Shown piece by piece: positions 24,341 to 61,515 of a stretch of 64,000 bases of DNA. A program made the position numbers and the translations under genes. This DNA comes from Blasia pusilla. Taxonomy: Eukaryota. Within the stretch, counting starts at the first letter, position 1. Each line of letters opens with the position of its first letter. Location: positions 47,430,001 through 47,494,000 of the forward strand of contig CM114271.1 of the NCBI GenBank assembly GCA_050084515.1, read 5' to 3'. The notes below the pieces were generated by a model. That model was given only the letters and a program-made list of their open reading frames with translations, searched no databases and was not told the DNA's origin.

Positions 24341-31903
<7,563 letters not shown>

Positions 31904-34900
31904 GGCCTTGCTTCAGTTCCCAAACAGCTCTCGCAATATGCAAAACCCTTATGTTCCGACTCCACCGTCCGTAACAGCCCGTCCCTGCACGCCCTCTATG
32001 AGTTGTTGACCTGACACTTTGAAACTCGCGGCCATTCTACAACCTACATCGCACAGCTCATTGCCTTGTAGCCATCAAATCCCCCACTCCGTCGGACGTA
32101 CATGCTGAACATCTGCGCCCGTTCAGACCATGGGGCAAAGTCCTCCAGCCCATGATCTGGATCCACCAGCGACGCTCGCATCGGATATCACACTCAAATC
32201 AGTCCCCCTGGTTGGCCTTCTGCATATATCGCATCGCATCCCTTCCCTGAAAAGCTGAGATACGGAAACCCACTGTGAGGCGACGAGTAGAACTCGCATG
32301 GCGACGCAACACTTCGATTATACTTGGCCAATGCTTGCAAAAGCGGAAAACCTACGACTTCGATGTTAAGACTGTACAAAACTCGTCGTCGTGATCGAAG
32401 GCCCTAACAGCTCCACGGATCGAGGAAGGAGAATTCCAAGACCAAAGCATCATGACCGACGGACGGCGAATATTGATCGGCAGCAGAGCTAGATATTCCA
32501 CCTGATTGGAAATTAGTCATACGAATCAGGAAGCAAATCGCACCGGTGCTCTTCAAACATGAACAGGGCATGGGTTGAACTCATCAACGGGCAGATGAGG
32601 TGCGAGAGACAGAAGGGAAACTAGTCCCACCCAATTACAGATTACAGCCTCGCCGACTCCGGATCAGAAAGACAGAAGGGCGGGGAAATTAGGTTTGTGA
32701 TTATGATACGTGAGAGCGAAGCGCAGCGGGGGCAATTGGCGCTCCATCAAGCCATCCGGCAGAATGGAAGCACACGGATGACGAGACCAGCGGGGTTGCA
32801 CAGCAGCGGAGAGCGAATCGGAAATGTGGAGGCAGCGCAGAAGTTGGAAGTACGAACCTGAACGCGGATGCCGTCGGCAAAGACGCTATGCAGACGAGTG
32901 CGTAGTAATGATGAGGAGGAACGAGAGGATGCAAGTGGCTGCAGATGATAGGATGCAACAGGAGGAAGGAGACTCACGGAAAGGGAACGAAGCAACGGAG
33001 GAAAAAAAGAAGAAGAATCAGCAGCCATAGCCTGTCTGTCTGTATTTCATAGACGCGAGACTTCTGTCTCCAATCCCCGCTTCCCTCCTGACCTGCCCAC
33101 TTCCCTATTCAACACCACCACCAAACATAAAAACGAGCCTTGATTTTAGGACCTCCCAAGGAAGACAAATGCCGCACGCACATGACACTGAATGAAGTCT
33201 ACGAGCCGATGCATGGTGGCGAAAGCTGATGAGAGATGCCGAGCAAAAGCGCCACGGTGAGAAATGGCTCTCCTTGCATTTCCGGTGAGGGCAGGGCAGG
33301 GCAGGGCAGGACGAAACAACGAGCCCCTCCTATCGTCGGCCCCCACAGTGCAGCACGGAGCCCCGAAACCGGGGGGGGGGGGAGAAACTGAGGGATGGAA
33401 AACGGCGAATCGGTCAGCTTGTCAAGTCAGCAGCACCCGTGGAACCCGCTAGACGACGGATTATTTTTACATCTCGTACAATGGATACATACATGGGGTG
33501 ATGGAGAGTTTTGAATTCCGTGGAAAAGGAAAGCAAAAAGTACCATCCTCTTCTTGCTGGGAAGCTTGCCTGCCCGGCCACCCGGCGCGAAAGTAAACCT
33601 TGCCCGACGTCCAAGTCTCAGGACACCACGCGGCGGCCTCGACGGAACAACACTTCGCGGAAGAGCGACCGCGTGGCATCGCGTTCTCCACCGACAGGTG
33701 CCGGTTCCTCGGTCGAATCGCCGACCGTCCCAGGTGAGTATACCGCACGGCTTCTACCGCCCAGCTCCCGTCTCCGGTACTGTCGTTGCGTCCTGCGGCG
33801 AGGCCGCGCCCGCCCAAATTCGAACCATTCTGCCCGTGCCCCCGTGCCGTGCCGGTACACCCGGCCGACACCCCCAATCCCAAGAAGATCCTTGCTAAAG
33901 AGACCCTCTCCAAATTAGCATCCTCGCCTTCGTTTGGCCGCCAGACACCGGGAGTCTGCTAGCCACTACGAATCGCGGACATCAGGTGCGGCTTTTCCGT
34001 AGTGTAGTAGCACATATGTCGCGGCGGAGTTTCTCGGCATGTGTGGTACATCCCCAGTCGGAACAGGAGCGCCCTCTGCGCGCAGTTCACGCTTACTTTC
34101 ACTCACGTTCCAAAAATAGGCCCCGAGTGATTGCGTGCAGGGCGGGACTGCGCTTTCCGTCGTCGCCTCACCCAGATACAGTACACAGCGACGTAGATGG
34201 CTTGGCACGGGACGGAACCCTCCTCGCTGCTTACCCTCCTCCGTCTACAGTGAGCATAACCCATCCGCCAGCCAGTCCAGTCCCGTCCACAACACGACCG
34301 ACAGAACGGAACGGAACTGGAGCACACCCCCAGACGCATGACGGCAGTGACGACTCCATCTGTTTGTCGGTCATCGGCAAGGTTCTCACGACGGACGGAC
34401 GGGACGGACGTGAATGCCGTTCTGGGCACCGCACGTGGCTGTCCGACGAGGCGGACAAGGCCGATGGGGTCCGCCAGACGGAGTCCGGGCAGCCGAAAGC
34501 GCCAACGTCCCTCAACTGCCACTCCACTCCTCTCCTCTCCCCAAGCAAAGAGAGCGAATGGTAGAGAGTTTCCTCGGGCCTGTCTTTCTCGCCTTCCCAC
34601 AGGCAGGGCTATTAATAGGCGTCCATAGCAACGAGCGGATAGATCACAGCATAGTCAACTGGAACGCATGCCCCCCCCCCCGTCGGCCTCCTCTGAATCC
34701 ATGACCTCACCCGCTTCGCCCACTGCTTGCTATCTATAGATCGCATGTCGACCTCCTCAAAACAAACGGTAATCCGTTCAGTGGGCGAGTCCGTCCGTCC
34801 GTCTCCACAGATTTCAATTTCTCGTCCCTCCTTCCCTCCCTCGCCCACTGACACAGACAAAAGCAGCAACAAGGAGCATGTGCCCCTGCCCTCGGACCCG

Positions 34901-43734: not shown

Positions 43735-44090
43735 GGTATAAGCCGTGAAGGGAAGAGATTAATGATGTTGCACATAAATTCAAATTTTTTCTTGCTGCCC
43801 GTAGCATGTGAAACAGTTTCTTGCCGCCCAATTGCCACATGTCAAGCATAGAGGTATTTGCAAATCAAGAAGACACTGTCCCATAATAATATAGATAAGG
43901 TGCTTGTGCGATGCACGCGAAATAAAAGAAAATTTTGAAAAGATAATGTATAGCACGTGAAGGGAAGAAATTAATAATATTACATGCAAATTTTCTTGAT
44001 GTAACATGTGAGACATTTTCTTGATACCAATTGCCACGTGTCAAACATGTAGGTGTTTGCAAGAAGGCAATACGATAGTATAAATATAGA
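43735..44090 (-). mobile_element. Two head-to-tail family-A Helitron-like units (junction ~43895)
   Basis: ...cccataataatataga|taaggtgcttgtgcgatgcacgcg... joins the end of one unit to the hairpin end of the next. Confidence 0.65.
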
Positions 44091-47000: not shown

Positions 47001-49038
47001 AACAGGTACTACGCTCTTAGGTCTCGCAGAGTTTTCCAATTTTGCATCAGCCAGTACAGTGGCGTACACCTCTCTCAAATCTCCCCTAAGCGTAGGCCCG
47101 AGATCCAAATCCAGGCCCCCGCTGAGGCTCCCCCGTCCTAAGTCCAAATTGGCGACCTTAAGCTTGCGAGGCATCCGGACTGCAAAGCGGGAGCGGCTGC
47201 TATCCAAAGGCAAACGATCGTAGCGCTTGCGTTGCACCATTCTTGTCAACCTCCTGCTCAACTGCTCGGATTTCGCGTCCTCCATCCCTATCGCTGCCGA
47301 CTCCCACCCGCTGCTGCAGTACCCGAGTCGAAGTCGATTTCCTCGCACCAAATCACACCAAATCTGAAGGTCGTGGCCCTAACTAGCTCACTACAATCTA
47401 CTCTGCGCCAAATATGTGCCCAATCAGGCGAAAGAACATGAGCTCGTCAGGGGAAGAGCGCAATATCGTCAAGATCTGAAAAGCCTGTATCGACAGAAGC
47501 GGGACACCTTGTTCCCAGCAGCAATTCTGAAGGAATAATTGGATTCAATTGAATTCAAGCTCCACAAGCAGGAACCACGCCACGCGCCAAGGAAACCCCT
47601 CGCAATCGCAAAGCCTGGACATGATTCCTCATCCCGTCAGAGATCCGAGAAATTACCAAAAATCGCTCCCTCTAGTCGCTCCCATGAAAAAAACTCCCTC
47701 TCACTCTCTAAATCTCTTCTGCTTGTATACACGAGCGGCTCCCAGCGCCAGAGTCCATATGGCCGTGAGAGAGTTGTCAAAACGTGACGCAAGATCTGTG
47801 GAACCTGCATCCTCGAAGTAACGTAAAGAGCTCAGGGAGTGAGTACCTGTAGAAACCACGGAAGTGTCTATATATGAATTTGGGTTGGTCGGTCGATCGC
47901 TCGGACTGCGTGCGCTGTCCTCAGTTGCTACCCACAGAACGTTGTCTGGACAGGCGTTCGTTGCAGCAACGGATTGACTGTCAACGTTTGGACCATCCAA
48001 ACTTTCAAAGTCGCCAATTTGCCAAACTCAGCAAACTCAGTTGCGGATAAGAGACGAAGACGGGTTTGGCGGTTCTGGCCCCTGGGGACTTCTGTCGCCT
48101 GAGCGAAGTCGGAGCCTATCAAGCACCAACAACAAAAGTTGTTACCTTCGTAAAACGAGTGATGGAAAACTCATCGGAAATACAAAATAGGGGGACTCAA
48201 AGAGTCAAAACCTGAAGGCCACAATAACACCATAAAAGGAAGAAGGGGGCATTCCCCTCCAACGAAATTCACCAACAGCATAGATAATATCAACAACAAC
48301 AAAAGAATTATGACTACTACTAAGTGGGCCTCTAGCGCCGGCATCTCCAACAACCAGCGCTGGGCTACGTGGTAAGATGATGACGGTCGTCGAATGAAAG
48401 ATTGGATGGGCAGAGGCCAAGTTTGAGAAATTCTTTGGTCAGGCTCTCCTCATCATTGGGTCCAATTCGAGAAATACGAGGCTCCTGACATTCGTCACAG
48501 TTAATAGGGAACCACGGATCCTAGATCGGACGGGCAGAGGCCTCTATAGAATAGAATCTTGCTAGTCCAAACCTGACCAGGCAGCGGCCATTCGGATGTC
48601 AATTGTTCCCATTATCATCATATTTAAATAAAGAAATAGCTCGGGGAAATAGAAACAAATTAGGGTTTTTAATAGAAAATTCATATTTTCTTCATTAATT
48701 TTCTTGAACAAATTCAGTTCTCATTGGTAAAACTCGTTTAAAATTTTTTCCATTAAAAATAATAATTCCAAAAACCATTTTAGAAAAATATTTATTTGAA
48801 GCAATGAATAACAAATGTACTCATTGAATTGAAATTATCATTATGGGAGGGGTCCTTGAAACTAACTTTACTTATGAGTCCTTTTTACCATGCTACCCTA
48901 TATTGAACAGAGTATGAGACATTGTAGTCACTCACCCATATAATAGTGAATCTATTATGGATTCCAAATTATGTTAAAGATTGAATTATTTCCTCTTTAT
49001 TTTAGATGACTCAAGATATTTCTTCAGATCTTAGATAA

Positions 49039-49102
49039 CTAGTAAGGTGCCCGTGCGATGCATAGGAAATAAAAAAAATGTTTGAAGAACTACTGTATAG
49101 CA
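49039..49102 (-). mobile_element. Hairpin/CTAG end of a family-A Helitron-like copy, split by the LTR retrotransposon; remainder at 59966-60119
   Basis: actagtaaggtgcccgtgcgatgcatagg...gaagaactactgtatagca. The consensus continuation (agc.cgtgaa...ttaatgatgttgcac) resumes at 59966. Confidence 0.7.
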
Positions 49103-49350
49103 TGTCATGACTGTTAGGATAGATCGGTGGGATCTAGTAGAGCGTCTGCACGAGTAGTGGAGGACATGTCCAGGAGGTCGAGGATGACCTGTTGAGGCCC
49201 TGGGAAACGTGAGAGAGCAGGTTTTCCCTTCGTTTCGGCTCATTTGGAGCCATATAGAGAAACTTACTATTTTGGGTAAGTTTCCATGTTGGGGATGATT
49301 GACTTTCCACTTTGGGAAGTGGCCCTTGACCCGCTACAACAGGTCAAGAG

Positions 49351-51011
49351 TTTCAGGGATTCCCCTTGAAGCTGAGTTCTGATCTGTGCGTCTTGCGCTT
49401 GCATCATCCTCTACTTGTCTCATCAAGCAAAGGAATCCTTCCTCTAACTCGGCCAAACTCGTCCTCGTGATGGCGTTCACCAACTCCATCTTCCTAGGAA
49501 CCTCACGAACCAATCTGACGTTCGTCCGTTTTCCGTTAACCAAGACGCTCAACCTCAAAGGTCTTCGCCTCAGTTCCACCTCATATGCATCCAAGAATGT
49601 GTTCCCCAAGACTCCGTCGATTCCGTCCATATCGCAAACTGTGAAATTCTCTTTCAACTCAAATACTCCGTATCCCACAACCAGCCCTAAAACCAGATCT
49701 GAAGTCCGGTGGGACTTGGCTCTCGCGAATCCTACCCTAATGGGTTCATCCGCCTTGGTGGTTGGCAATCCCAACGTTTTCACGATTCTCGGACTCAAGA
49801 ATGAGTACGAAGCATACGTATCAACGAGCAACATCACATCGTGATTAGCGATCCTGGATCCTAGGTAAACCAAATCGGGCGTTCTCTTGGTGACTTGGAG
49901 AGATGTATCTAGATCTCCCGCCGATGAGTGCTTAGCAGCAAACGCAATCATACTCGGTTTACTAACCTAGGGCCTAACACATTCCTTAGCCATATGCCCG
50001 GGTTCGCCATAGTTGTAGCAAATCACTTTGGCATTCGTTGACTTCCTGAACGACGGCCCTCTTGGCTTCGCGTTGAGTTCCACTTGTTTCGCTGCTGGGG
50101 CAAGAGACCCCTCCGTGGTCGCGCTCACCCCCATTCCAAACCCTCTTGGATGTCCCTTTGTTTTTCGGTAACTTAGAAAATATTTTTGGCTCAAAGGGTT
50201 TTGGTGTTGGACTTCATCGTCCCCAATACGCTCTGCTAGCCTCAGAAGATCCGCGCATGTCTTTGGGATGTGAGGCATACAAAAGAGGGCCTTTTCGGCG
50301 CTCGATTTGAGTCCACTTAAGAAGATCACCTTTTTCTTATCTTCATCCGAGGAGAGTGCACTCATGAGTGCACTAAACTCTCGCACATAAGCGCCAAGGG
50401 ATCCGCTCTGGCGCAACCTTACAACCTCCATGCCATCGCGATACTCCTGATATTCCAGAGTGAATTGGTTCCCAATCAACTCCTTGAAATCTTCCCAACT
50501 CAACGTTTTCCCACAGCCTAGATGTTCTTTACGCTGATCCGTCCACCAATGGAGAGCGTGATCCTTCAGAAACGTGACCGCTACAGTCACCTTGTCTTGT
50601 TCATCTGCCTTTTGCGCTTTGAAATAAAGTTTTGAGTTCCGTTAGAAACTCGCTCACTTTCCGAGAATGCCCCATTCTTGTGAATGGCGTTGGCAAATTT
50701 GTCTTACAAAGCTTCTTGCCGGAACTAGAGGCTCCATCTGACTTGAATTCCATTATCACCTTGCTTTGTTCGGCCATCTGGTCCGCCATCACCTTCATCA
50801 ATCCCATCATTTGGACATAAAAGGCTGGATCGTTTGAGTTCGGAACCGAAGGTCCCGCGGAAAGATGTTCGGTTGGAACATCCTCATGTCTGGGACTCGG
50901 CACTTCGGGAGTCGCAATTTCCACCTCAAGCTTTTGGTCCGTCATTGATTCGTCTCTCGAATTTTTTGCTTTAACTCCCGATTTCCTCCGTTCTTCGCCC
51001 TTGGTCGCCAT
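49351..51011 (-). pseudogene. gag-protease of the nested gypsy element (frameshift ~50600, stop at 49967-49969)
   Basis: AVTFLKDHALHWW...SWEDFKELI...LRQSGSLGAYVREF (gag). Degenerate zinc knuckle CYNYGEPGHMAKEC. Protease LLVDTYASYSFLS...IDGVLGNTFL. Confidence 0.85.
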
Positions 51012-52143
51012 TTGCGAGTCTTCACTTTCTCAAATCTCCTCCTCGCCTCTTGCGTTCCTCCTCGGGCGTCGCGGTCTTCCGGCTACCTTGAGTTCTCCCC
51101 AAACGTCCACATCTTCTACGACCCCAAGTTCACGCTCATCAAGGTTTAGTTATGATACCACGGGTCCTGCGCCTACTCTCCTTGAACGTTAATCTTGTTG
51201 TTGCGGAAGCGTGCGTTCAGTAGGTCACGCTCTCAACGGTGATCTGCATCCAAATACGCACTGTGGCTAGTCGGGTCTTGGATCAATCAGCGGGCTAACT
51301 TTCCGAGTTCTCGTCTCGGACTCTCATCAAGCTCAACCTTCCTAGTTTCGCGATTTACAACACGGGCAAGTCTCGGAAGACTTGGGACAGACTTTCTGGT
51401 CGGTTCAAGAACCTGAAACAACATTTCGCGCTTGGCGATTCCAACTGTCTGATGGAAATCCAATGAGTTCCTCACCAAGACTCGCACGAAGTGAATCTGG
51501 GGTTGGAATCCAAGTGTGGCGTACAAAGTCCACTCCCTTGGATGAGGTTTGGGTTTCGAGTTCCAACGCCAAACTCCCGTTCCATCGCGTGCCTCTGAAA
51601 CGCCGTTTGGCACTCAAAGTGAGGATTCATGTTCTGAGACATCTCCTACATTAAGGGAAAGACACCTGGGCCTCTCCAATTGGCTCTCAACCGGATTGCT
51701 CTCACAGTCGTGTTTGGCCAATATCTCAGCCTGTACTTATGCTTTTTCTAAGATCTTTGATGAGTTGGAAGCGTCTCAAGATAAGTTTTCCAACGCGCCC
51801 TTACTTGTTCCAAACGCATTTTGGAGCTCAACGTTATGGTCCTAGACACAGTCAGATTCTTGAAACGCTAGTCGTGTTCCAAACTGGTTCTCACCTCTTT
51901 GGCAACCAAACTCCCAAGACTCAACTCATCTCAAGTCTTGGCTCACGTTTGGTCTAGGTTTCTTGGTCGCGACCACTAACCCATGAAACACACAACTTTG
52001 TTCCACGTTACGTCTCTTAGACTTTTCCAAGAGACCTTTCCAAACGCCTCTCCTAAGCGCAAACCTCGCAGCGTGAGTTCACTTGAGTTCTGATATTTCG
52101 CTTGGCGCTTATTTGGTGTTGTTTGGTTATGAGGGTCGCGACA
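49351..52143 (-). mobile_element. Nested, inverted, 3'-truncated Ty3/gypsy element (LTR start, gag, aspartic protease)
   Basis: The minus strand starts TGTCGCGAC at 52143, with a PBS-like TGGTATCA at ~51160-51153. gag and protease follow, and the element is cut off before RT. Confidence 0.8.
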
Positions 52144-53390
52144 GCTTGGGAGAGGGAAGGGGGTATACCTCCAAGAGAGAGAGCTTGAGAGCTCATTCTC
52201 TCTTTGTTGAACCTCTTGGCATGAGGCGGCGGAGCTATGGTCTTGCTTGCCTTGCGTGTGTAACCCAAGCCTCTCATTAGGAGAATGGGTTTGGTTTGAT
52301 ATTGAGAGACATATGTGAGAGTGCACACATGTGAGAACTATAGTGTTGTGAGAGAGATTTGATCTTACTTTACAAAGAGAGAATGAGAGAATGAGAATGA
52401 GAGAGCTTTATGGGGGAGCTTGCTGGTCGCTCGCTGTTTTTTCAGGTTGGGGACCGTGTTTCCCGTTTAGCGGCTCATGGAATTGCTCACCAGAGCAAGG
52501 GCTGCTTTGATTGTTTTTTGCATTTGCCGATTTTTCGTGTGGAAGAGTGGCACGGGGAAGCGCTGTCCAATTTTTGATAGGGATTGATTATGGGGACAGG
52601 TTGCCCTATGTCGGTGCTCTCGGGAGCACCATGTAGCTTGCTGATTTGTATTTTTATAGGTTTTACATTTCCGTTGGGAGAAATCAGCATGGAAGCGATG
52701 CCAAATTTTGTGTAGCAGAAAGAGACATTGGGGTTTACCACAGTCCCTGTCAGTTTTTACTGAAATGTCTCATTCTAAATATTTTTTGACATTGTCGTAG
52801 ATCGTGAAGTTATGCAAGCTATGCAATTTGGAGTTGCGAGAACAAATTTATGGTCATCGATCTACTCGAGTTCTTTGAGTGAAATCCGTGAAAGACATAG
52901 TGTCATAAAACACGCATTAAATCACATACAATCAAGCCAAACCCACACCACGATGGGAGAATCCAGGTTGAAGCTTGCGCGAACCATCATAGCCAAGAGC
53001 TCTACTCACTACCAAGGTTAACTCCCAAGGCAAAAGGCTCAACTCAAAGAACTAACTGTTCTTTGAGTGCACTCCACACTATATCCTCCAACCCATGAGC
53101 GGGCCCTACTGGAAAAGTCACCCTCAACTGAGTAACCCCCAACCCTATGTATGAAACCGCATCTCTACCTAGACACTATGGCCCCACATAAGGTATGGCC
53201 TCTACTAGCACACTTTACTCTACGACATAATTTGTATGGTCATGACAACCGGGGTAGAGGATCGCGTAGGTTTTCAGGTGCAGTAGGCACGATTGAGTTG
53301 CACAATTTCATAGCATAGTTAAGGAGTTCGTGCGACTCCCAACCGACCTGGAACTCTTGAGAGTTCAATCTGCTTAGAGCATGGAACGGT

Positions 53391-54300
53391 ATGTTCCAAC
53401 ATTTAAAGGGGCGCCCATGGATGAATACCATGAGTTCTCTCAAAGATATGCATGTGAGATCGAGGCGTGGAGGCTCTATTATGACCCACATTATGTGTCA
53501 TGAACGGAGCCGTTCTCAGATGAGGAGGAGGAGTCAGGAGAGGCTACTTCCTCTTCCACTAGTGACATTTTAAGAGGGGTGACTTGCACTAGAGCAGTTG
53601 CATCGTCTAGTCGGGTTCATCCTAGGTTCAACCATGTGGTTGAGTTCTTTGCTGAGTTGAGGGCGAGCTACCAAGGGGTACGGACGGAGAAGTTGCGGAG
53701 CATCCACGACTTCCAGAGGCGCCAATGTGAGAGTTTGCGTGAGGCTTACACTCGCTTGCGTCGGTTGATCAACGTCACTCAGGGGTGACAGAGGCTGAGG
53801 CTATCCAATCATGGTATGCGATGTTGGACCGGACCCTACGGACACAAGTGCCGGATGGGATGCTTCTTATGAACACCTCCCCTACGTTGAGAGATTTTTT
53901 TAGGACCGTCGAGAACATTGAGCGCAAGATGGCGGAGGACAGCGTAGCCACCATGGGTTTTGGGCGAGAGTAGTCATGATTGGCTGCACCACGTGTGCAG
54001 CAACGTGGACTTCGAGATAGGTCGACTGTGGCACCACGAGCTCAGGAAGGATATTAGGAGGCCGTGCCACAGAGACCTGTGCCTTCATATGCGGCTCAGC
54101 AGCAACGGCCTACTATTACTTGTTGGTCATGTGGTGTAGCCCATCATCAACGCGGTTGAACTTGTCAGGGTCGTGGATGTGTGCCTCAGCATGGAGGAGG
54201 AGATGATGGTGGACCATGAGGTTATCCGTGTGACTATTATTAGAGGTATGGTCATACACGCGCCAAGTGTTTCAGTTTACATCATGAGTTACATCCAGAC
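53391..54300 (+). pseudogene. gag of the DNMT-bearing retrotransposon (disrupted)
   Basis: FFAELRASYQG...FQRRQCESLREAYTRLRRLI is a retrotransposon gag-like signature. Two degenerate zinc knuckles: CWSCGVAHH (~54121) and CDYY*RYGHTRAKC (~54229). Confidence 0.65.
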
Positions 54301-55061
54301 CAAGGGCCAGAGAGGGCACTAGAGCGAGTAGCCGGTCCGGGTAGGTCTAGAGATCGTGCACCAGGTGGTCCCGTTGGGGGACGAGGAGCTGGAGTTGCCC
54401 GACAGGGTGATAGAGCTACCCGTGGAGGAGGTAGAGTACCACCACCTAGACGCGTCGAGGAAGACGCCGGACATGAGGCTGTGATGGCTCCTTAGATACA
54501 ACAGCTAGAAGAGCAGATTGCCGCTATGGCATTGAGGTTACCCGATGTCGGATCCATGGCATTGACATCATATGGAGGAGTTAGAGATATGGAGGATCCT
54601 GGTTGGATGTGCGGGGTTGCCGAGATGAAGGCCGCCGTAGTTGTGATGCGTGGAGCAGCCGTAGAGTTGGATCCACAACGAGGGGAAGCCAGAAAATAGA
54701 CTAGGCTTCCTCAGTCCTTCACGTTATCCGAAGCGATGAGGATCCCATCGATGGATCCTCATAAAAATCCTGGAGAATTGGTGTTGTTGTTGGTGTGCAA
54801 GCACGGAGGGCGATTGGAGAAGTGAGTGCGATGACGCTTCTTGTTGATATTCAGGAAGGGCATGTGTTGAGCACGTTGTTGGGGGCGGTCATTGTTGTGT
54901 ACCGCACTCCTTTATTTTATGCTTTCGATGTTATGATGTTGGGGGGTACGCCTGCCGAGGATTTTCGGCTGGCCGCTTCACAATGTGAGCGCCGAGTTGG
55001 AGTTCTTGCATCATGTTCAGAGATGATTGCAGAGGAGGTGCTAGACCTGCCCTTGGAATAG

Positions 55062-55514
55062 ATGCTCCGGCCGTCCACGTCAGATTCATGGCAGGCTGCG
55101 GCTGCTAGGATGGCGGAGATGCCCGCTAGACCCGTGATAGAGCCTACCATGGCTTCTCCTGATGTTGTGTTGCTGGATAACCGAGGAAAGGTCTTCCAGT
55201 TGGTGAGTCCCAGAGGTAGAGCTTTTAGTTCGCAACGCGTCTTGTTGGATTCAAGAGCACAACCCCTGATGTTGGGGAAAGCGTCATTCAAAGGATTGGG
55301 CTTGACGAGAGCTGATGTGGAGCGTTGTTCATTTCGGATACATACATCCTTGGGTGGAGCGAGTACCACACAGTATATCACCCGACAAGAGGTCATGGTG
55401 AGGATTCGCCCGGGACATTCTACAAATGAGTCTGTGGTGCGAGCCAAGGCGATAGTGATTGATCCAAAGTCCTATGACGTCCTGTACCCGATGGGGTTTT
55501 CCTTGGATTACTAG
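55062..55514 (+). pseudogene. Retroviral-type aspartic protease (catalytic DSG appears as DSR)
   Basis: RVLLDSRAQPLMLG at ~55236-55277 and downstream SYDVL. Same frame as the methyltransferase. Confidence 0.75.
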
Positions 55515-55934
55515 GAGGAGTGAGCGTCCTATAGACCAAGATGGCAGTCAGGTGATGGGCGCCTTAGCTCATTACCCGTTCGATTCACAGGTGCATTGAT
55601 CGAGCGACGGCCAGGAGAGGTGGTGACCTTAGCAGCATTTAGCAGTGCCATCACTTGGCCTAGTGATGTGATTGAGGGACATGTCCATGCAGAGGATACT
55701 CCCGTTTCTGATATGTTTATGGAGAGGAATGTTATGGTAGCCCCATCATTGCGTGGAGGAGAGGTGTCGTTGTGGGGCTCGACTGAGGAGCTTCAATGAT
55801 TGGTAGATGAGCACGTGCAGACCGCGTGGAGCGAGGCGTTTGCACCGGAGCGTGATGGGTCTGAGGAACCCGAGGTAGCAAGGAGTGCTACGATGACACC
55901 CTTGGATACCACACCCATTGCGTTGTGTATCCTA

Positions 55935-56885
55935 GAGGAGGGTATTCGAGTGTCAGATCTCTTTGGAGGGATTAGCACCGGGTTAGTTGTTGTTTTGCAG
56001 GCAGGACTGCGAGTGCAGCAGTACATGTATGTGGAGAGTGATGATGTAGCAAGGCGCGTCTCACTATGACATGTGGGGCAGATACGCCTACGTTTTCCCG
56101 ACTTATTGTCTGCATCCGCGGTAAAGGGATACCAGAGTTCCCTACCCAGGGATATTTCATTGCCGGGGGCGCAGGACTTAGAACGGGTAGGGACCATTGA
56201 TTTGGTCATTTCCGGTTGGCCATGTCAGGGCCAATCGAGTGTTGGACAAGGCAGCGGGTTGGCTGACACTCAATCCACGTTGTGTTGGGAGATGTTGAGG
56301 GTCTTATGGTAGTTGCAAAAGCACTAGTCTCCTTCTCCAGCCTACATTCTAGAGAATGTTCCGATCTTAGGAGACTCCATGTCACGGGTGGTGACGAGTG
56401 CTCATCAGGTGCGTGCCTAGATTGGCCCAACCTTGTTCTTGGATGCGGCAAGTGTAGGTTCTAGAGCCCATCGCCAGCGTCTATGGTGGACCAACTTGGT
56501 ACCCCATACGATGTTACGGAGGGCGTAGGCGAGAGTGGAGCGCCCCTCCCATTTGTTAGTGGATTCCATTGTGGATCCAGGTTGTCGATCACAAGCAGTG
56601 AGGCACGATGATCGACCACCGTTGACTATGGTCAACAGGGTAGGCAGGCCGCAGGTAGCCTTGCCCACGTTTGTGAGTTTTTTCGCTTCCTATGCATACA
56701 AGGAGGCAAGTCCTGGCTTGGTTTGGGATGACCAGGTTCAGCGGTTGGTGGAGCCCAACGTCGACGAGAGAGAGCGAGCGATGGGATTTCCCATAGGAGT
56801 GACGGCAGTACTGTTAGTGTCAGAGGCATCACGACACCATGTCTTGGGTTAGGAAAGGACCTGAACTGCTTGACATGGATCCTCA
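55935..56885 (+). pseudogene. C5-cytosine DNA methyltransferase domain within the retrotransposon polyprotein (six in-frame stops, no frameshift to 56852)
   Basis: One frame gives motif I DLFGGI (55956), motif II YVESD, motif IV DLVISGWPCQG (PC at 56220-56225), motif VI YILENV (56352), motif VIII AHRQRLWW (56472), motif IX ERERAMGFP (~56781) and motif X VLG* (~56850). Confidence 0.92.
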
Positions 56886-57299
56886 CCTTGGGAGTGGTTG
56901 AGCAGCGCCGTATGAGATCGTGACAGATCACAACGGTTGTGTTGGTGAGCCCCATGCCTACTGAGACGCTGGAGGCAGTGGCTGGTGGCGAGACCCGAGG
57001 AGATCTACACACCAGTGGAGATTGGGAGAGACACCCTTGGACTTCTTCGGATGTTTTGCAGATACGCTAGGAGATGATAGCCACAACATCGAGCGTGGTT
57101 CTGGGCAATGCACATGGAGGAGATCAAAGTTTGCATTTGGCTACAGGAGAGCGTCCGAGTGTTATTGTTGGAGACAAGGTTGCACCACTGATACCCGCGT
57201 CGGAGAGTCCTACCGTAGTCACGATGGAGACTTTGGAGCCAAATACGGGCCCTAAGAGGAGAGCGGCGCCGGATACATCAGTTCCTCAGGAGTTATAGG

Positions 57300-57590
57300 A
57301 GCTGCTTTGCGTTTAGCATGGAGGATTTGGGTACGCTGAAGGGACCGGGGATCCGCATTGAGTTGTCGAGTGATATGTTGATCTTCCGATGACCCTAAAG
57401 GTATAGTGATATGGAGAGGGCTCTGATTTAGAGTATGAGCCAAGAGTTGGTTGGAGCAAGACTAGTGGAGATGTCGCATGGGAAGTATGCATCTGCCAAT
57501 GTCATGCCCGCCAAGAAGGATGTGCATGGCAACTGGACAGATAGACGGATATGTGGGGATTACCGACCTATCAATCGGCAGACGAAGTCT
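57300..57590 (+). pseudogene. N-terminal reverse transcriptase remnant; the YxDD core and RNase H are missing (internal deletion)
   Basis: FAFSMEDLGTLKG...GKYASANVMPAKKDVHGNWTDRRICGDYRPINRQT is a gypsy RT N-terminal signature. The sequence then jumps to integrase within ~160 bp. Confidence 0.85.
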
Positions 57591-57749
57591 TGGAGTGCCT
57601 TGGTACTGGCAGCGTTGCGAGCACCGTGCTAGAGAGCGGGATCGGATCCTACATTAGGACAGACGGTTCCGTTGGGAGGGGACATATGTTTTGAGGGTTT
57701 GGGAGGATGGTAGAGTATGCTTAGTGCCGCATCCTTCGCAGAGACCATG

Positions 57750-58790
57750 ACTAGTGCAGCATGCCTACGAAGAGTTTGGTCACTTTGGGGTGAAACGGAC
57801 GTACAACTTGCTCCAGATTGAGTATTGGTGGCGAGGCATGCATACTAACGTTCAACAATTTGTTGCCATGTGCATGGTGTGTGATCGGGTCCGAGCATCG
57901 TTCAATGCTCCAACTCCATAGTTGCATCCATTACCGATCACGGGCTTAGGATATAGATGAAGTTTGGATTTTGCCAAAGACCTTTTCCTTTAACGGAGCG
58001 TCACAGTCGTTATGTGTTGGTGATGGTCGAGCACTTCTCAAAGTGGATCGAGTTGGTTGCATTTTCTGACAAAGCAAGTGAGGGAGTAGCTTATGCCTTC
58101 CTTGACGGAGTGTTGAGTCATTATGGCGCATCGGCTGAGGTGTTGATAAACCAGGGTACCGAGTTTCGCGGTGAGTTCCAAGCCTTGTGTGATCAGGCGC
58201 AGATCGACCACAACACGACTTCGCGAGATCAACGCGAGTCGGATGGATTAGCGGAGAGAGTTGTGCAGACGGTGAAGAGGGGTTTACGCAAGTATGGCTT
58301 GCAACGAGGTCACCTAGGAGATTGGGACCTCTAGTTTCCATTGTTGGCGATGGGATACAAATTCAGCATGCAAGCATCCTTAGTGTCTTTTTCACCGTAC
58401 TTGCTACTTTATGGCCGAGAGCAAGATTTACCTACGGCCATTCGTCGAGATGCTGGTGAGGTGCTGGACCTTGATGATCTAGATGTATGGATGCAAGCAT
58501 TTCTGAGAGGGCTGAGTTGTTTCGGAGAGTGATGCCAATGGCGTTCGAGAACTTGGCAATTGCGCAACATCGGGATACGTTGAGGTATGCGACTGTTCGC
58601 GGTGGTGATTATCGACCAACTATCCGGAGGTTTCATCAGGGAGATTATGTCTACTTGCAGGAGACAACATCGACGACGTTGGATGTGACCGCATGGTGCA
58701 CTATCCTGAGAGTGCGTGACGTTTTGCCATCCGGTGTCCTCTTGCTGGAGGGACGCGGTGGTATGGTATGGAAGGACCATATGCGTAATT
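57750..58790 (+). pseudogene. Integrase (zinc-binding region plus DDE core), disrupted
   Basis: GHFGVKRTY...YWWRGM...CMVCD...LHPLPI...SLDF...YVLVMVEHFSKW...NQGTEF...DGLAERVVQTVK...FSPYLLLYGRE. Confidence 0.92.
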
Positions 58791-58863
58791 GTGTGCGCCA
58801 TGTCACCTCCCTAACATTGATGGTACAATAGATCCGATCTCTGCAATAGTTCGTGCAGGCTTG

Positions 58864-59007
58864 TGTTGTATGTTGTGTGGTTTTGCTCGAGGTGCGGCCA
58901 TGATGCTATTCTGTGATGGATGTTCGAGAGGTTGGCATATGGCATGTCTGACGCCACCTCTCACTAGGGTTCCTCGGGGACGATGGATGTGTCCCAGATA
59001 TACATAG
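58864..59007 (+). pseudogene. PHD finger at the polyprotein C-terminus (last Cys appears as Tyr)
   Basis: [45 protein letters not shown] has the C4HC3 pattern with the typical CLxPPLxxVPxGxWxCP. Confidence 0.9.
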
Positions 59008-59322
59008 AGGAAATACTAGGTAGGTTTCAATTCCGACTTTTTCGGTGACATGGATGATAGGAAGGCAACTAATGATGGGGCCACATGAGCATCCGACCTT
59101 TCTCCTCTTAGCGTCCTTGAGATGTATGTGGTGGTAGGTAGGGATAGATGGCTATCTGGAGTTAGAGGAACCTAACCACCAACTAGGCGGCAATTGGAGA
59201 TATTTTGGTACTTCTCGCCTCTGTGTATGGATACCATGAGTTAGCATGGGATCGTGTGTGTTTGTATGTGTGTTCGATGAGAACGATGTATGTTGTGTAG
59301 CGATGTGTATATGCACGACTGC

Positions 59323-59839
59323 TGTCACGACTATTAGGATAGATCGGCGGGATCTAGCAGAGTATCTGCACGAGTAGTGTAGGACATGTCCAGTAGGTCG
59401 AGGATGACCTGATGAGGTCCCCGGAAACCTGAGAGAGCAGGTTTTCCCTTTGTTTCGGCTCATTTGGAGCCATATAGAGAAATTTACTATTTTGGGTAAG
59501 TTTCCATGTTGGGGATTATTGACTTTCCATTTTGGGAAGTGGCCCTTGACCCGCTACAACAGATCAAGAGCCAAGGAGGTGACCTGCGAACATAGGTTAC
59601 CGTTGAGAGGGTTTGGGAGGGGGAAGGGGGTATACCTCCAAGAGAGAAAACTTGAGAGCTCATTCTCTCTTTATTGAACCTATTGGCATGAGGTGGCAGA
59701 GCTATGGTCTTGCTTGCCTTGTGTGTGTAACCCAAGCCTCTCATTAGGAGAGTGGGTTTGGTTTGACATTGAGAGACACACGTGAGAGTGCACACATATG
59801 AGAACTATAGTGTTGTGATAGAGATTTGATCTTACTTTA
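59323..59839 (+). repeat. 3' LTR, truncated after ~517 bp
   Basis: Starts TGTCACGAC and is colinear with the 5' LTR halves. It retains 40 bp (59571-59610) that the 5' LTR lost. Confidence 0.85.
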
Positions 59840-59965
59840 TTGGAGATATTTTGGTACTTCTTGCCTCTGTGTATGGATATTATGAGTTAGCATGGGATCG
59901 TGTGTGTTTATGTGTGTGTTCGATGACAACGATGTATGTTGTGTAGCGATGTGTATGCGTATGAG

Positions 59966-60331
59966 AAGCCCGCGAATGATAGAAATTAATGATGTTGCAC
60001 ATACATTTATTTTTTTCTTGCACCCCCTAGCAGGGGAAATTTTTTTTGCTGCCCAGTTGCCACGTGTCAAACAAAGAGGTGTTTGCAAACAAGAAGACAT
60101 TCTCCCATAATAATATAGATAAGGTACCCGTGCGATGCACGAGAAATAAAAAAGTGTTTGAAGATCTAGTGTACAGCCCGTGAAGGGAAGAGATAACGAT
60201 GCTACATATAAATTCAATTTTTATTTTTTTTTGTCGGTTGTAATGAAACATTTTCCTGCCGCCCAATTACAACATGTCGAGTAGAGAGGTGTTTGCAAAT
60301 GAAGAAAGCACTCTCCTATAATAATATAAAT
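59966..60331 (-). mobile_element. Remainder of the split family-A Helitron-like copy (59966-60119) plus a head-to-tail second unit (60120-60331)
   Basis: Junction ...cccataataatataga|taaggtacccgtgcgatgcacgag... has the same form as the one at ~43895. Confidence 0.7.
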
Positions 60332-61195
60332 GATAATCATTTTGTAAAGATAAAAAAAAGGTGTGAATAACACTAACCATATGGCACACAAATTTTTTTA
60401 AAAATTCATAACACATGAAATATTTTTTTCCCAAACTAAAAAATAATATTCCAAGAATAATATAGATCGATGTAAATATATTTCATTTATATGAATTATC
60501 TCTAATCAAAATAGAAACGACAATCACATCCGTGGCAGTCTCCAAAACAACGGACGGTTTTTCGGATTCTGACAAATAGAATGGGGTTTGTCGCTCTTGT
60601 TACTTCCAGGTGTCGGGATTACGGGACTCTCAGGTGAGATTACAGCCGTCCTCCTTCAAACGCCACCTGTCCATTGGCCAAGGGTGGAGCTACACTAGCT
60701 CCTAGGCTAATCTGTGCCCTTCATTATTAAATCCGACGGTAAAGTATCGTCATTTGGTTTCAACCGTCCTCCCGTGGTCTCTCGCGCTGTCGTCGGGATC
60801 GTAGTTTACTGTAAAGAGTTGTCCTGGCAACGCATCGCGGAGAGTCGGAGACTAAACTGCAACGTCGCCTGGACACGTAGCGCTGGCTCCCTGGCCAACT
60901 CGACGTGATCGGCTAAAATCTTCTTTACGAGAGCCACGTGCGCGGGAGCGTCGCATGCCGGTGAAGAAAGGACGGAACGTGAAGACGTCGCTTTCTAATA
61001 GATTCTAGATTGGTATGAACTTACATCGATACGGCCCTACTAATGCTTCTAAATTTCGATATTTTCTTACGTTGACACGTAGTTTTGTTTGGATGAGAAA
61101 AATCAAACCATGTAAAAAAAGATGGGGGGTTTACCGTGCTTAGAACGTCCGTAATCTTTCGGGTGTTCCCATGTTTATTCCGCATTCTTATTTAT

Positions 61196-61515
61196 ATAGT
61201 AAGGTGTCCTGAAATAGTAAAGTTTGTAAGAACTAGTGTTCATAAAGAGATTAACGATGTTGTAAGTAATTTTTTTTTCACTGTCGGTAAGATGTGAAAT
61301 ATTTTCTTGATATCCAATTGTCACGTGCTAAACATAGAGGTGTTTGCAAATCAAAAAGGCACTCCCCATAATAATATAAATATGTTTACTTGACATGTGG
61401 CAATCGGGGAAAAAAATGTTCCTTGGTATATGGGAAAATAGACTATGGGAAAATATTTCCCATTTTGTAAGTATAAAGATTTTATTTTTTTGTGCAACAT
61501 GATTAATCCTTTCAA
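61196..61515. mobile_element. Family-A Helitron-like copy (61196-61381) followed by an inverted partial copy (~61390-61515)
   Basis: tagtaaggtgtcc...ggtgtttgcaaatcaaaaaggcactccccataataatataaat. Then ttgacatgtggcaat...gtgcaacatgattaatc, the reverse complement of the internal part. Confidence 0.6.

Follow-up and report, generated by a model that had tools for sequence, protein, structure and literature searches.

A 64,000-nucleotide stretch of the liverwort Blasia pusilla genome (contig CM114271.1, positions 47,430,001 to 47,494,000; the window hereafter) contains a Ty3/gypsy-type retrotransposon with its own C5 cytosine DNA methyltransferase (DNMT) domain. The element is 10,864 bp long, occupies positions 49103-59966 of the window and has the order gag, protease (PR), DNMT, reverse transcriptase (RT), RNase H (RH), integrase (IN) and PHD finger. 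Overall, the best explanation is that it is a land-plant member of the streptophyte Gypsy-DNMT3 lineage first described as KnitGypsy-Dnmt3, and we consider this very probable. The kind of element is already known from KnitGypsy-Dnmt3. What appears to be new is its presence in land plants, abundant and transcribed in a liverwort.

Methylation is the usual route by which hosts silence such elements, and elements with their own cytosine methyltransferase invert that picture. The Gypsy version has so far been described from one charophyte alga, with few copies and without demonstrated activity. The lineage is now seen in land plants, in liverworts and Sphagnum, so that the gain to the element from methylating DNA becomes approachable in a tractable bryophyte, for example Marchantia. 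The DNMT is located before a conserved stop, and TG...CA ends with 4-bp duplications are combined with an A...B-A-B repeat layout and an internal image of the joined ends, which raises a question about the mode of replication. The window copy itself is ordinary, and the interest rests on the family.

A DNMT3-like domain shares a frame with the protease

The first-pass annotation of the window, made from the letters alone, had proposed a C5-methyltransferase between protease and RT and had named PF00145 as the profile to run on the reconstructed frame. We read the domain in frame 0 of the + strand (54765-59100) with stops written as X. PF00145 matches this read-through with 34 bits against a cut-off of 22 (E 2.7e-8), and scores 27-46 bits in the relatives. 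In a phmmer comparison of the window domain with PDB chains, DNMT3A is the top match (E 8.5e-11) and DNMT3B the next, followed by weaker matches to DRM2 (0.015) and M.HhaI (0.8). A profile of nine divergent element DNMTs finds DNMT3A at 2e-22 and DNMT3B/C at ~1e-19, then tobacco DRM (NtDRM, 9e-13), Arabidopsis DRM2 (7e-9), M.HhaI (1e-8) and DNMT2 (2e-6); DNMT1 is not matched at E 0.001 or better. Since the PF00145 score is above the cut-off, the best PDB match is DNMT3A and the profile gives the same ranking, the segment 55914-56852 is, by its sequence, a real DNMT3-like C5 cytosine methyltransferase domain.

The seven motifs listed in the first-pass annotation (DLFGGI, YVESD, GWPCQG, ENV, RQR, ERERAMGFP and VLG) are all found in frame 0 and in canonical order, without circular permutation. 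Motif names follow the DNMT literature: I (FxGxG), IV (PCQ, with the catalytic Cys), VI (ENV), VIII, IX and X. All 9 of the 9 divergent element DNMTs keep the catalytic Cys, the Glu of ENV and motifs I, VIII and IX unchanged. The motif IV proline is replaced in some relatives, reading GWECQG in P0025 and GWECTD in P0024.

The element domain resembles animal DNMT3A/3B and plant DRM in fold family and motif set. These enzymes provide its best PDB matches, and its motif order is that of DNMT3. Identity is ~25%, however, and the element has extra segments between motifs I-IV and VIII-IX; inserts common to all element DNMTs are absent from fish DNMT3b. The order in DRM is circularly permuted, whereas that of the element is not. 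Pfam scans of the window read-through and of the relatives detect neither PWWP nor ADD, the accessory domains of host-type DNMT3, and just retroelement domains and the C-terminal PHD finger are present.

The window copy of the domain contains six in-frame stops (56067, 56310, 56325, 56418, 56526 and 56850) and a frameshift at ~56845-56853. Because the frame shifts here, motif X (DLNCLTW) sits in another frame, and the earlier description of a frame broken by point stops alone has to be corrected. A tblastn search with Marchantia Mp_4g09160 yields a single high-scoring segment pair (HSP) over 54897-56849, in one frame and with 51% identity over 663 columns. As one HSP in one frame covers both, protease and DNMT are contiguous, without an intron or frameshift between them, in agreement with the first reading.

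The PR-DNMT-RT order recurs in bryophytes and Klebsormidium

Relatives were searched for with the DNMT part, within polyprotein-sized proteins. The 28 matches, the best with ~60% identity, comprise 13 Marchantia polymorpha 'hypothetical proteins', one protein of Sphagnum fallax and otherwise metagenome proteins. Further relatives, from Calypogeia fissa, Sphagnum troendelagicum and Klebsormidium nitens (KFL_009030040), came from a profile search. The K. nitens protein matches the element DNMT profile with E 1e-74 and is 43% identical to the Marchantia domain, while the sole canonical DNMT3 in this search, fish DNMT3b, reaches E 4.8e-14 with 25% identity.

KFL_009030040 (DNMT 312-369, RT 770-930, RH 974-1103, IN 1235-1401) is collinear with the window element, with identities of 33% in PR, 40% in DNMT, 35% in RT and 46-57% in IN. 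According to Pfam positions and local BLAST, the arrangement gag-PR-DNMT-RT-RH-IN(-PHD), referred to as type 1, is found in the window, Marchantia, Sphagnum, K. nitens and the one-frame, 2374-aa protein P0025; Marchantia MARPO_0091s0058 has the order PR-DNMT-RT-RH. The order PR-DNMT-RT recurs in unannotated gene models of Marchantia, Calypogeia and Sphagnum, which are the element's nearest relatives, in KFL_009030040 and in 7 of 7 metagenome loci. All seven loci checked read gag-PR-DNMT-RT-RH-IN-PHD, then B-A-B, where A and B are the repeat units described below. In a second arrangement, type 2, the order is RT-RH-DNMT-IN-PHD (for example P0024, P0026, P0027, P0196 and P0198).

The pol of the relatives is PR-RT-RH-IN with a DDE integrase (PF00078, PF17917/PF17919, PF17921, PF00665). 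Pfam scans of 18 relatives' proteins give no match to the phage-integrase family (tyrosine recombinase), and the DDE integrase (PF00665, PF17921) is present instead. Likewise, Pfam detects no chromodomain in the window or the relatives; the PHD finger PF00628, which the first-pass annotation had recognized in the element, takes its place after the integrase.

The element DNMT profile was scored against all 1.84 billion cluster representatives, and 518 clusters match at E 1e-30 or better. The 143 new top representatives divide into 88 of type 2, 8 of type 1 and 47 with DNMT only, and 51 carry a PHD finger. The element DNMTs, as judged from these matches, form a large retroelement-borne DNMT family. 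The ESM Atlas confirmed a Streptophyta DNMT cluster and yielded nothing beyond it, and no K. nitens-like locus was found among 80 fetched metagenome loci.

In a 70-row DNMT tree, the window falls into a 22-row clade (SH-aLRT 100) together with Calypogeia, both Sphagnum species, all Marchantia rows and three unnamed rows. Its sister is a 21-row type 1 clade of unnamed rows (98), followed by the type 2 clade (99), with the K. nitens group in basal position. The bryophyte clade receives 100/100 in a 27-row tree. All element DNMTs group against two outgroup rows with SH-aLRT 84, in a tree without host plant DNMT3s. The type 2 clade nests among the PR-DNMT-RT forms, which suggests that the DNMT relocated within one lineage.

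The first-pass annotation had offered two origins, an extension of the Klebsormidium-type lineage into embryophytes or an independent capture. Extension is favored by the collinearity with the Klebsormidium element, by the A-coding-B-A-B repeat layout common to both and by a DNMT far closer to that of Klebsormidium than to animal DNMT3; independent capture is disfavored.

Split direct repeats are combined with integrase-type termini

The coding frame had been described as lying between matched long terminal repeats (LTRs). Self-comparison of the window replaces this with the layout A1 - coding - B1 - A2 - B2, in which the B unit is ~125 bp long and A1 is split by a 2.8-kb foreign insertion. 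Two identical LTRs, one per end, are not what the elements have: the window and five further loci show A...B-A-B.

The limits of the element, 49103-59966, are confirmed by its flanks, which are gaplessly continuous with respect to a 208-bp local repeat: 49043-49102 closes one unit, and the next unit starts at 59967. The uninterrupted unit junction at 60177|60178 carries one AGCC and represents the empty site. The local repeat family (~208 bp, AT-rich, partly tandem) is present at 43743-43992, 49043-49102, 59967-60331 and 61296-61382, and the element is inserted in one of its units.

For a census of the repeats, 80 metagenome loci were fetched, 264 of 600 candidate stretches were confirmed and 38 loci of at least 8 kb were self-compared. 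The complete A-coding-B-A-B layout is found in 5 of the 38 (L026, L031, L037, L042 and L073; A 280-344 bp, B 115-185 bp). Four more have B-x-B alone, the 5' side lying beyond the locus, and two more have the A pair alone. In the family, A starts with TGTCATG and B ends with CACGACA, a 6-of-7 inverted match of the TG...CA type. These termini are seen in the five complete loci, in degenerate form in L026 and L031 (one end or both); in the window, TGTCATG is intact at the 5' end and the 3' end is degenerate. A G-run directly precedes B1 in the relatives.

Four of the five complete loci have 4-bp duplications abutting the A start and the B end (CATA, GGTC, CCAA and ATCC). In addition, similarity to the element stops at the B end in 802 host DNA reads, and what follows there is AT-rich and differs from read to read (agreement 0.35). 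Since the duplications abut them and the reads diverge at the B end, the A start and the B end are the true integration termini. The internal B1|A2 junction reads CACGACA-NN-TGTCATG, in other words the B end followed, after two spacer nucleotides, by the A start. In its chemistry the integration resembles that by a DDE integrase, but the split repeats are of the tyrosine-recombinase type. Conceivably, the internal junction, as an image of the joined ends, serves to regenerate or cut them.

Joints 59959->49103/49114 and 59625->52160 were considered as circle or tandem junctions and rejected: they are the B-A junctions and uninterrupted A units of other copies, split between two window copies. 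In the X19 RNA run, 13 molecules (first mate minus) start at 59845, the A2/B2 boundary, which is not a listed peak in the other two runs. Transcripts may have their 3' end here, where unit A stops.

A conserved stop separates DNMT and RT

In the relatives, gag-PR-DNMT is located upstream of a conserved in-frame stop, and RT-RH-IN-PHD follows downstream in the same frame. Locus L023 contains a 1369-codon frame (gag-PR-DNMT) and a 1047-codon frame (RT-RH-IN-PHD) in phase, split by a single TAG (TAG CAG TTA). CAR-YYA is the leaky-stop context of plant viruses, and that of L023 fits. DNMT and RT share one frame in 14 of 21 bryophyte-like loci, and in 7 of these 14 a single stop, constant in position, interrupts the frame between the two. 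The context TAG/TAA CAA CC(C/T) is found in 16 of 47 loci. Many predicted proteins, Marchantia Mp_4g09160 among them, terminate ~90-110 residues past the DNMT, and the conserved stop accounts for this.

This position would place the DNMT in the abundant Gag-PR product. Terminating at the leaky stop, the DNMT would be made in Gag-like amounts, and RT-IN would be the rarer readthrough product.

The family is abundant, transcribed and constrained

Subsets of host reads (~1% of one genomic run, 6-12% of three stranded RNA runs) were placed on 48500-60500 at a likeness of at least 88%. DNA depth is 0.07 on one unique flank bin versus 640-1600 across the internal part of the element, with 1050, 927 and 1049 on the DNMT bins. 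The internal part accounts for ~7.7 of 1966 Mb read, or ~0.4% of the genomic run. This corresponds to hundreds to thousands of copies, an uncalibrated figure that depends on genome size. Most reads are 90-95% like the window copy or less, and only 263 of 86,099 reach 99% or more.

In each of the three RNA runs gag-pol is covered, the DNMT bins included, at a depth of 21-60 for first mate minus versus 0.3-3.6 for plus. Under the usual stranded-library convention, the RNA over the DNMT is sense. A peak of the opposite orientation is present at 52911-53311 in all three runs (first mate +, depth 81-120), beginning at 53086.

The first-pass annotation had proposed computing dN/dS across copies. By the NG86 method among metagenome locus copies, the bryophyte-like group A has values of 0.49 for DNMT (118 pairs), 0.48 for RT and 0.38 for RH; in the second group, B, they are 0.38 for DNMT (627 pairs), 0.38 for RT, 0.36 for RH and 0.33 for IN. 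All values are pushed up because the copies are mostly decayed. DNMT and RT are equal within each group of relatives, and the DNMT is as constrained as RT, RNase H and integrase.

Across 48500-60500, the window differs from the family reads by A/T against G/C at 518 places and by the reverse at 218. An excess of C-to-T/G-to-A changes is what deamination of methylated cytosines would give. The observed/expected CpG ratio is 0.75 in the element versus 0.68 in the rest of the window, which is not lower and not informative.

Further read patterns were seen near 53247. Past this position, 765 DNA reads from other copies depart from the sequence of the window and go on as the reverse complement of the B-unit end, and 22 reads join 53247 to 59953 on opposite strands. 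Inside the element, neither the window copy nor seven related loci contain an inverted repeat, and the inverted B-end sequence of other copies therefore does not represent an internal feature. Words of the element turn up at small shares in runs labelled as air metagenomes, which is evidence of nothing so far.

Relation to described elements

Comparisons with published elements draw on sections and figure legends of de Mendoza 2018 (PMC5890265) and on passages of a preprint (bioRxiv 10.64898/2026.05.21.726589). The Klebsormidium gypsy and dinoflagellate DIRS elements with Dnmt, which the first-pass annotation had named, are both in the former. Its legends define the DIRS arrangement as 'A-coding region-B-A-B' and assign to KnitGypsy-Dnmt3 a DIRS repeat structure with Gypsy domains (Figs 1e, 4c; PMC5890265).

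KnitGypsy-Dnmt3 is the closest counterpart. Both elements have a DNMT3-like, non-rearranged, intronless domain inside a Gypsy-type pol with DDE integrase, in the order PR-DNMT-RT-RH-IN, and A-coding-B-A-B repeats (PMC5890265). In both cases the DNMT is under purifying selection, with Ka/Ks < 0.2 there (PMC5890265) and 0.38-0.49 among the decayed relatives here. In contrast to the algal element, the host here is a liverwort, with relatives in Marchantia, Calypogeia and Sphagnum, and DNMT identity is ~40%. A PHD finger follows the integrase here, and none is detected in the partial K. nitens model. The copy number is low in K. nitens (PMC5890265) versus ~0.4% of genomic reads here. A leaky stop, TG...CA ends and 4-bp duplications are without mention in the sections and legends of PMC5890265 on which this comparison draws.

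SymbioDIRS-Dnmt3 from dinoflagellates likewise has a DNMT3-like domain in pol and A-coding-B-A-B repeats. It differs by a tyrosine recombinase in place of the DDE integrase and by another RT lineage, and its authors regard it as an independent capture (PMC5890265).

Repeats of the form A1-internal-B1-A2-B2, with an internal B|A junction that mirrors the joined termini, are shared with PAT/Ngaro-type DIRS elements. These have a tyrosine recombinase, whereas DDE integrase, TG...CA ends and 4-bp duplications are found here. PAT/Ngaro-type DIRS elements are not known to make target duplications.

Chromoviruses and EpiLTRs are also Ty3/gypsy-type elements with chromatin or epigenetic modules added to pol, and EpiLTRs carry a DNMT (bioRxiv 10.64898/2026.05.21.726589). 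Unlike in chromoviruses, it is a PHD finger and not a chromodomain that follows the integrase of the window element. The EpiLTR DNMT is sister to DNMT4, is located at the 3' end of pol and is described as a capture distinct from the streptophyte Gypsy-DNMT3 (bioRxiv 10.64898/2026.05.21.726589).

The first-pass annotation had also stated that such elements are not standard in described land-plant lineages. This stands insofar as full-text literature searches returned no title or passage that describes an embryophyte LTR element with DNMT, although supplements may list such sequences. The novelty was nevertheless overstated: Marchantia models that contain the domain have long been public, and later papers place DNMT3 in retrotransposons of streptophytes, with 'streptophytes (Gypsy-DNMT3)' in print (bioRxiv 10.64898/2026.05.21.726589). 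The word 'Marchantia' is absent from the main text of de Mendoza 2018 (PMC5890265), and 'methyltransferase' is absent from a liverwort transposable-element landscape paper. For Gypsy-type elements with split direct repeats, the same searches gave no title or passage beyond KnitGypsy-Dnmt3.

Possible functions and alternative explanations

The DNMT may carry out de novo cytosine methylation, with newly made DNA of the element or its landing site as the target, and the PHD finger may read histone tails, steering integration or methylation. The combination of DDE integrase and DIRS-like split repeats would be accounted for by integration from a circular or concatemeric intermediate through the internal palindromic end-junction. 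In the window copy, none of the proposed functions can work. The parts can be joined into one scenario: a DNMT3 captured once before land plants, in a lineage still active in liverworts, is encoded with Gag-PR before the leaky stop, enters particles in Gag-like amounts and methylates newly made DNA of the element, which integrates from a circular or concatemeric intermediate via CACGACA-NN-TGTCATG. As a whole this scenario is tentative, and we doubt that it holds in every part. If true, integration via an internal end-junction would add a mode of replication that is not known from LTR retrotransposons. Elements at ~0.4% of the genome could then add measurably to the host methylome, and Marchantia, in which relatives occur, would open all of this to genetic tests.

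A DNMT3-like, intronless domain in a window copy full of stops might be a host DNMT3 gene, a pseudogene or a one-off retrocopy in or beside a retrotransposon. However, the DNMT shares its frame and HSP with the protease, the same junctions occur in at least 4 named species and 7 of 7 loci, DNA depth on the DNMT bins (927-1050) is like that of the rest of the element, and Pfam detects no PWWP, ADD or other host DNMT3 accessory domain. Recurrence in named species and in all seven loci has already refuted this explanation, which has practically no chance of being right; the recurring PR-DNMT-RT order and the even depth make the DNMT an integral polyprotein domain, as first proposed, and not a neighbouring host gene. 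An independent capture of a host DNMT3 by the bryophyte elements, with a convergent likeness to Klebsormidium, is improbable but deserves more weight. DNMT capture has recurred in DIRS, LINE and Gypsy elements (PMC5890265), the RT-RH-DNMT-IN-PHD arrangement dominates the new top representatives (88 of 143), its existence implies that the domain moved at least once, and the tree is without plant host DNMT3s. On the other side stand the collinearity of KFL_009030040 with the window over PR, DNMT, RT and IN, the rare A-coding-B-A-B layout common to both, the gap in profile E-value between the K. nitens protein (1e-74) and fish DNMT3b (4.8e-14), and the inserts of all element DNMTs that fish DNMT3b is missing. 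As the trees are without plant host DNMTs, a single capture shared with Klebsormidium and repeated capture are not formally separated.

The repeats could alternatively be ordinary B+A LTRs (~650 bp), the 5' LTR having lost B and a truncated third LTR following the 3' LTR. The purine/G-run directly before B1, where a polypurine tract would mark an LTR start, fits this view, as do the 27 of 38 long loci without the A/B pattern. Yet A...B-A-B recurs with identical breakpoints in five independent loci, four of the five complete ones have 4-bp target duplications right outside the A start and the B end, 802 genomic reads end at the B end and then enter heterogeneous sequence, and the window flanks are contiguous around 49103-59966; ordinary LTRs are highly improbable. 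Unlikely, though less remote than these, is that the domain is kept without being a DNA methyltransferase in vivo. It might, for instance, bind DNA or SAM, distract silencing factors of the host as a decoy or methylate RNA. Expressed in yeast, the K. nitens domain produced no methylation (PMC5890265), and the replaced motif IV proline in P0025 and P0024 points the same way. Against it, even divergent members share an unchanged catalytic Cys, ENV Glu and motifs I, VIII and IX, and dN/dS of the DNMT equals that of RT. Moreover, the DNMT3-like SymbioDIRS-Dnmt3 domains methylate CG de novo in yeast, and human DNMT3B shared the yeast failure of the K. nitens domain (PMC5890265).

Several observations weigh against the preferred explanation, a land-plant member of the Gypsy-DNMT3 lineage. 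The negative yeast result for the K. nitens DNMT domain is one of them, regarded as inconclusive by its authors since human DNMT3B failed too (PMC5890265). Among the 38 long loci, the 27 without A or B pairs include 4 of the 8 that are fully flanked on both sides. The tree outgroup consists of one fish DNMT3b and one unnamed protein and leaves out plant host DNMT3, DRM, CMT and MET1. Branching within the bryophyte clade departs from the species tree with poor support, placing Sphagnum beside Marchantia (88/79); a liverwort-only clade of 17 named rows is not rejected (p-AU 0.109), this group having been named after the tree was seen. We infer readthrough of the conserved stop from position and context only. 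The copy number is uncalibrated, with a single unique flank bin for comparison, and the sense-strand call assumes the usual library convention. Nearly all of the RNA comes from other copies, mostly 90-95% like the window copy, which need not be intact. It could also stem from read-through or from silenced loci. Most relatives are decayed, with a stop-free DNMT in just 5 of 80 loci.

The window copy is an old, defective insertion

The insertion at 49103-59966 is old and defective, one dead copy among very many. It has six DNMT stops and a frameshift, a mutated protease site, an RT/RH deletion and at least 7 frame changes along gag-pol. The features are listed in Table 1. When the insertion is subtracted and the deleted RT/RH restored, the length (and the length alone) becomes ~9.35 kb, compared with 8.6-9.65 kb in the relatives.

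Pfam gives no match on the window's own gag and protease open reading frames, and both are therefore named by homology to the relatives, where the region homologous to the window protease matches PF13650. The catalytic D-S-G of the protease reads D-S-R in the window copy by motif comparison. TGA 57189 and TAG 57216 are tentative candidates for the counterpart of the conserved stop of the relatives. The rest of RT and RNase H is deleted from 57590 (~430 codons, ~1.3 kb), and integrase resumes at 57628. On the integrase read-through, PF00665 scores 29 bits (E 1.3e-6), under the family cut-off of 32.6 bits. No TGG-type primer site is seen after A1 in the window element, and no tRNA genes, sought for a guess at the primer site, are present in the 64-kb window.

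Other copies differ from this one. In the DNA reads, 830 from other copies carry on with RT sequence past 57589, and length differences occur at four places where the window copy changes frame. The defects are therefore private to this copy or its subgroup. The nested 2.8-kb fragment at 49351-52145, with a gag that contains a CCHC knuckle, is itself repeated in the host (DNA depth 250-900), and reads of other copies cross its insertion point uninterrupted (loose ends 52143; joints 59625->52160).

Table 1 Features of the retrotransposon and host exons in the window.
Feature	Position	Strand	Basis or remark
Probable 5' copy of 4-bp target-site duplication, AGCA	49099-49102	+	3' copy AGCC at 59967-59970, 3/4 bases alike
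Repeat unit A1, 5' part, starts TGTCATG	49103-49350	+	92.7% identical to 59323-59570
Nested insertion, fragment of other LTR retroelement in 5' A unit	49351-52145	-	gag 49967-50641 (minus), PF03732 Retrotrans_gag E 1.5e-10
Repeat unit A1, 3' part	52146-52374	+	93.8% identical to 59613-59839
Leader between A1 and gag; GA-rich simple repeat 52376-52405	52375-53255	+	without recognisable tRNA-type primer site
gag, decayed, three frames	53256-54759	+	tblastn Mp_4g09160 residues 9-490, 36-52% identity, frames 0/2/1
Aspartic protease region and linker	54870-55913	+	same HSP and frame as DNMT
DNMT3-like C5 cytosine methyltransferase domain, motifs I-IX	55914-56852	+	PF00145 match, PDB matches, motif reading
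Motif X and tail of upstream reading unit, shifted frame	56765-57055	+	tblastn Mp_4g09160 residues 1156-1243, frame 2
In-frame TGA (57189) and TAG (57216) just before RT	57189-57218	+	near place of relatives' conserved stop
RT, N-terminal part only (~120 residues)	57219-57590	+	67% identical to Marchantia MARPO_0091s0058 residues 696-817
Integrase: zinc-binding part, DDE core, C-terminal part, three frames	57628-58795	+	tblastn P0023, P0025, K. nitens P0212, 46-59% identity
PHD finger, pol C-terminus	58792-59007	+	PF00628, E 5.6e-11, 42.7 bits; 71% identical to Marchantia Mp_7g09570
Purine/G-run remnant, polypurine-tract-like, directly before B1	59170-59192	+	intact G-runs in relatives
Repeat unit B1	59193-59322	+	94.9% identical to 59839-59956
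Repeat unit A2, uninterrupted, 517 bp	59323-59839	+	self-comparison
Repeat unit B2, element 3' terminus	59839-59966	+	end degenerate, ATGAGA vs family ACGACA
Short-chain dehydrogenase exon	9983-10390	+	PF00106; host gene
Phosphatidylinositol 4-kinase beta, 560-codon exon, with repeated charged region	30233-31912	-	host gene

Other features of the window

A second, unrelated Gypsy-like protease with linker is located at 8062-8559 (-). It is 31-34% identical to the PR region of the Marchantia element and has no adjoining DNMT.

The land-plant source that had been assumed for the DNA agrees with the host phosphatidylinositol 4-kinase beta (PI4K-beta) exon, which is closest to liverworts. Its identity is 75% to Marchantia paleacea, 76% to M. 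polymorpha, 69% to Riccia fluitans and 64% to Calypogeia fissa, and 40-56% to a lycophyte, mosses, ferns and seed plants. By this exon, the source lies closest to the recorded Marchantia species but outside them.

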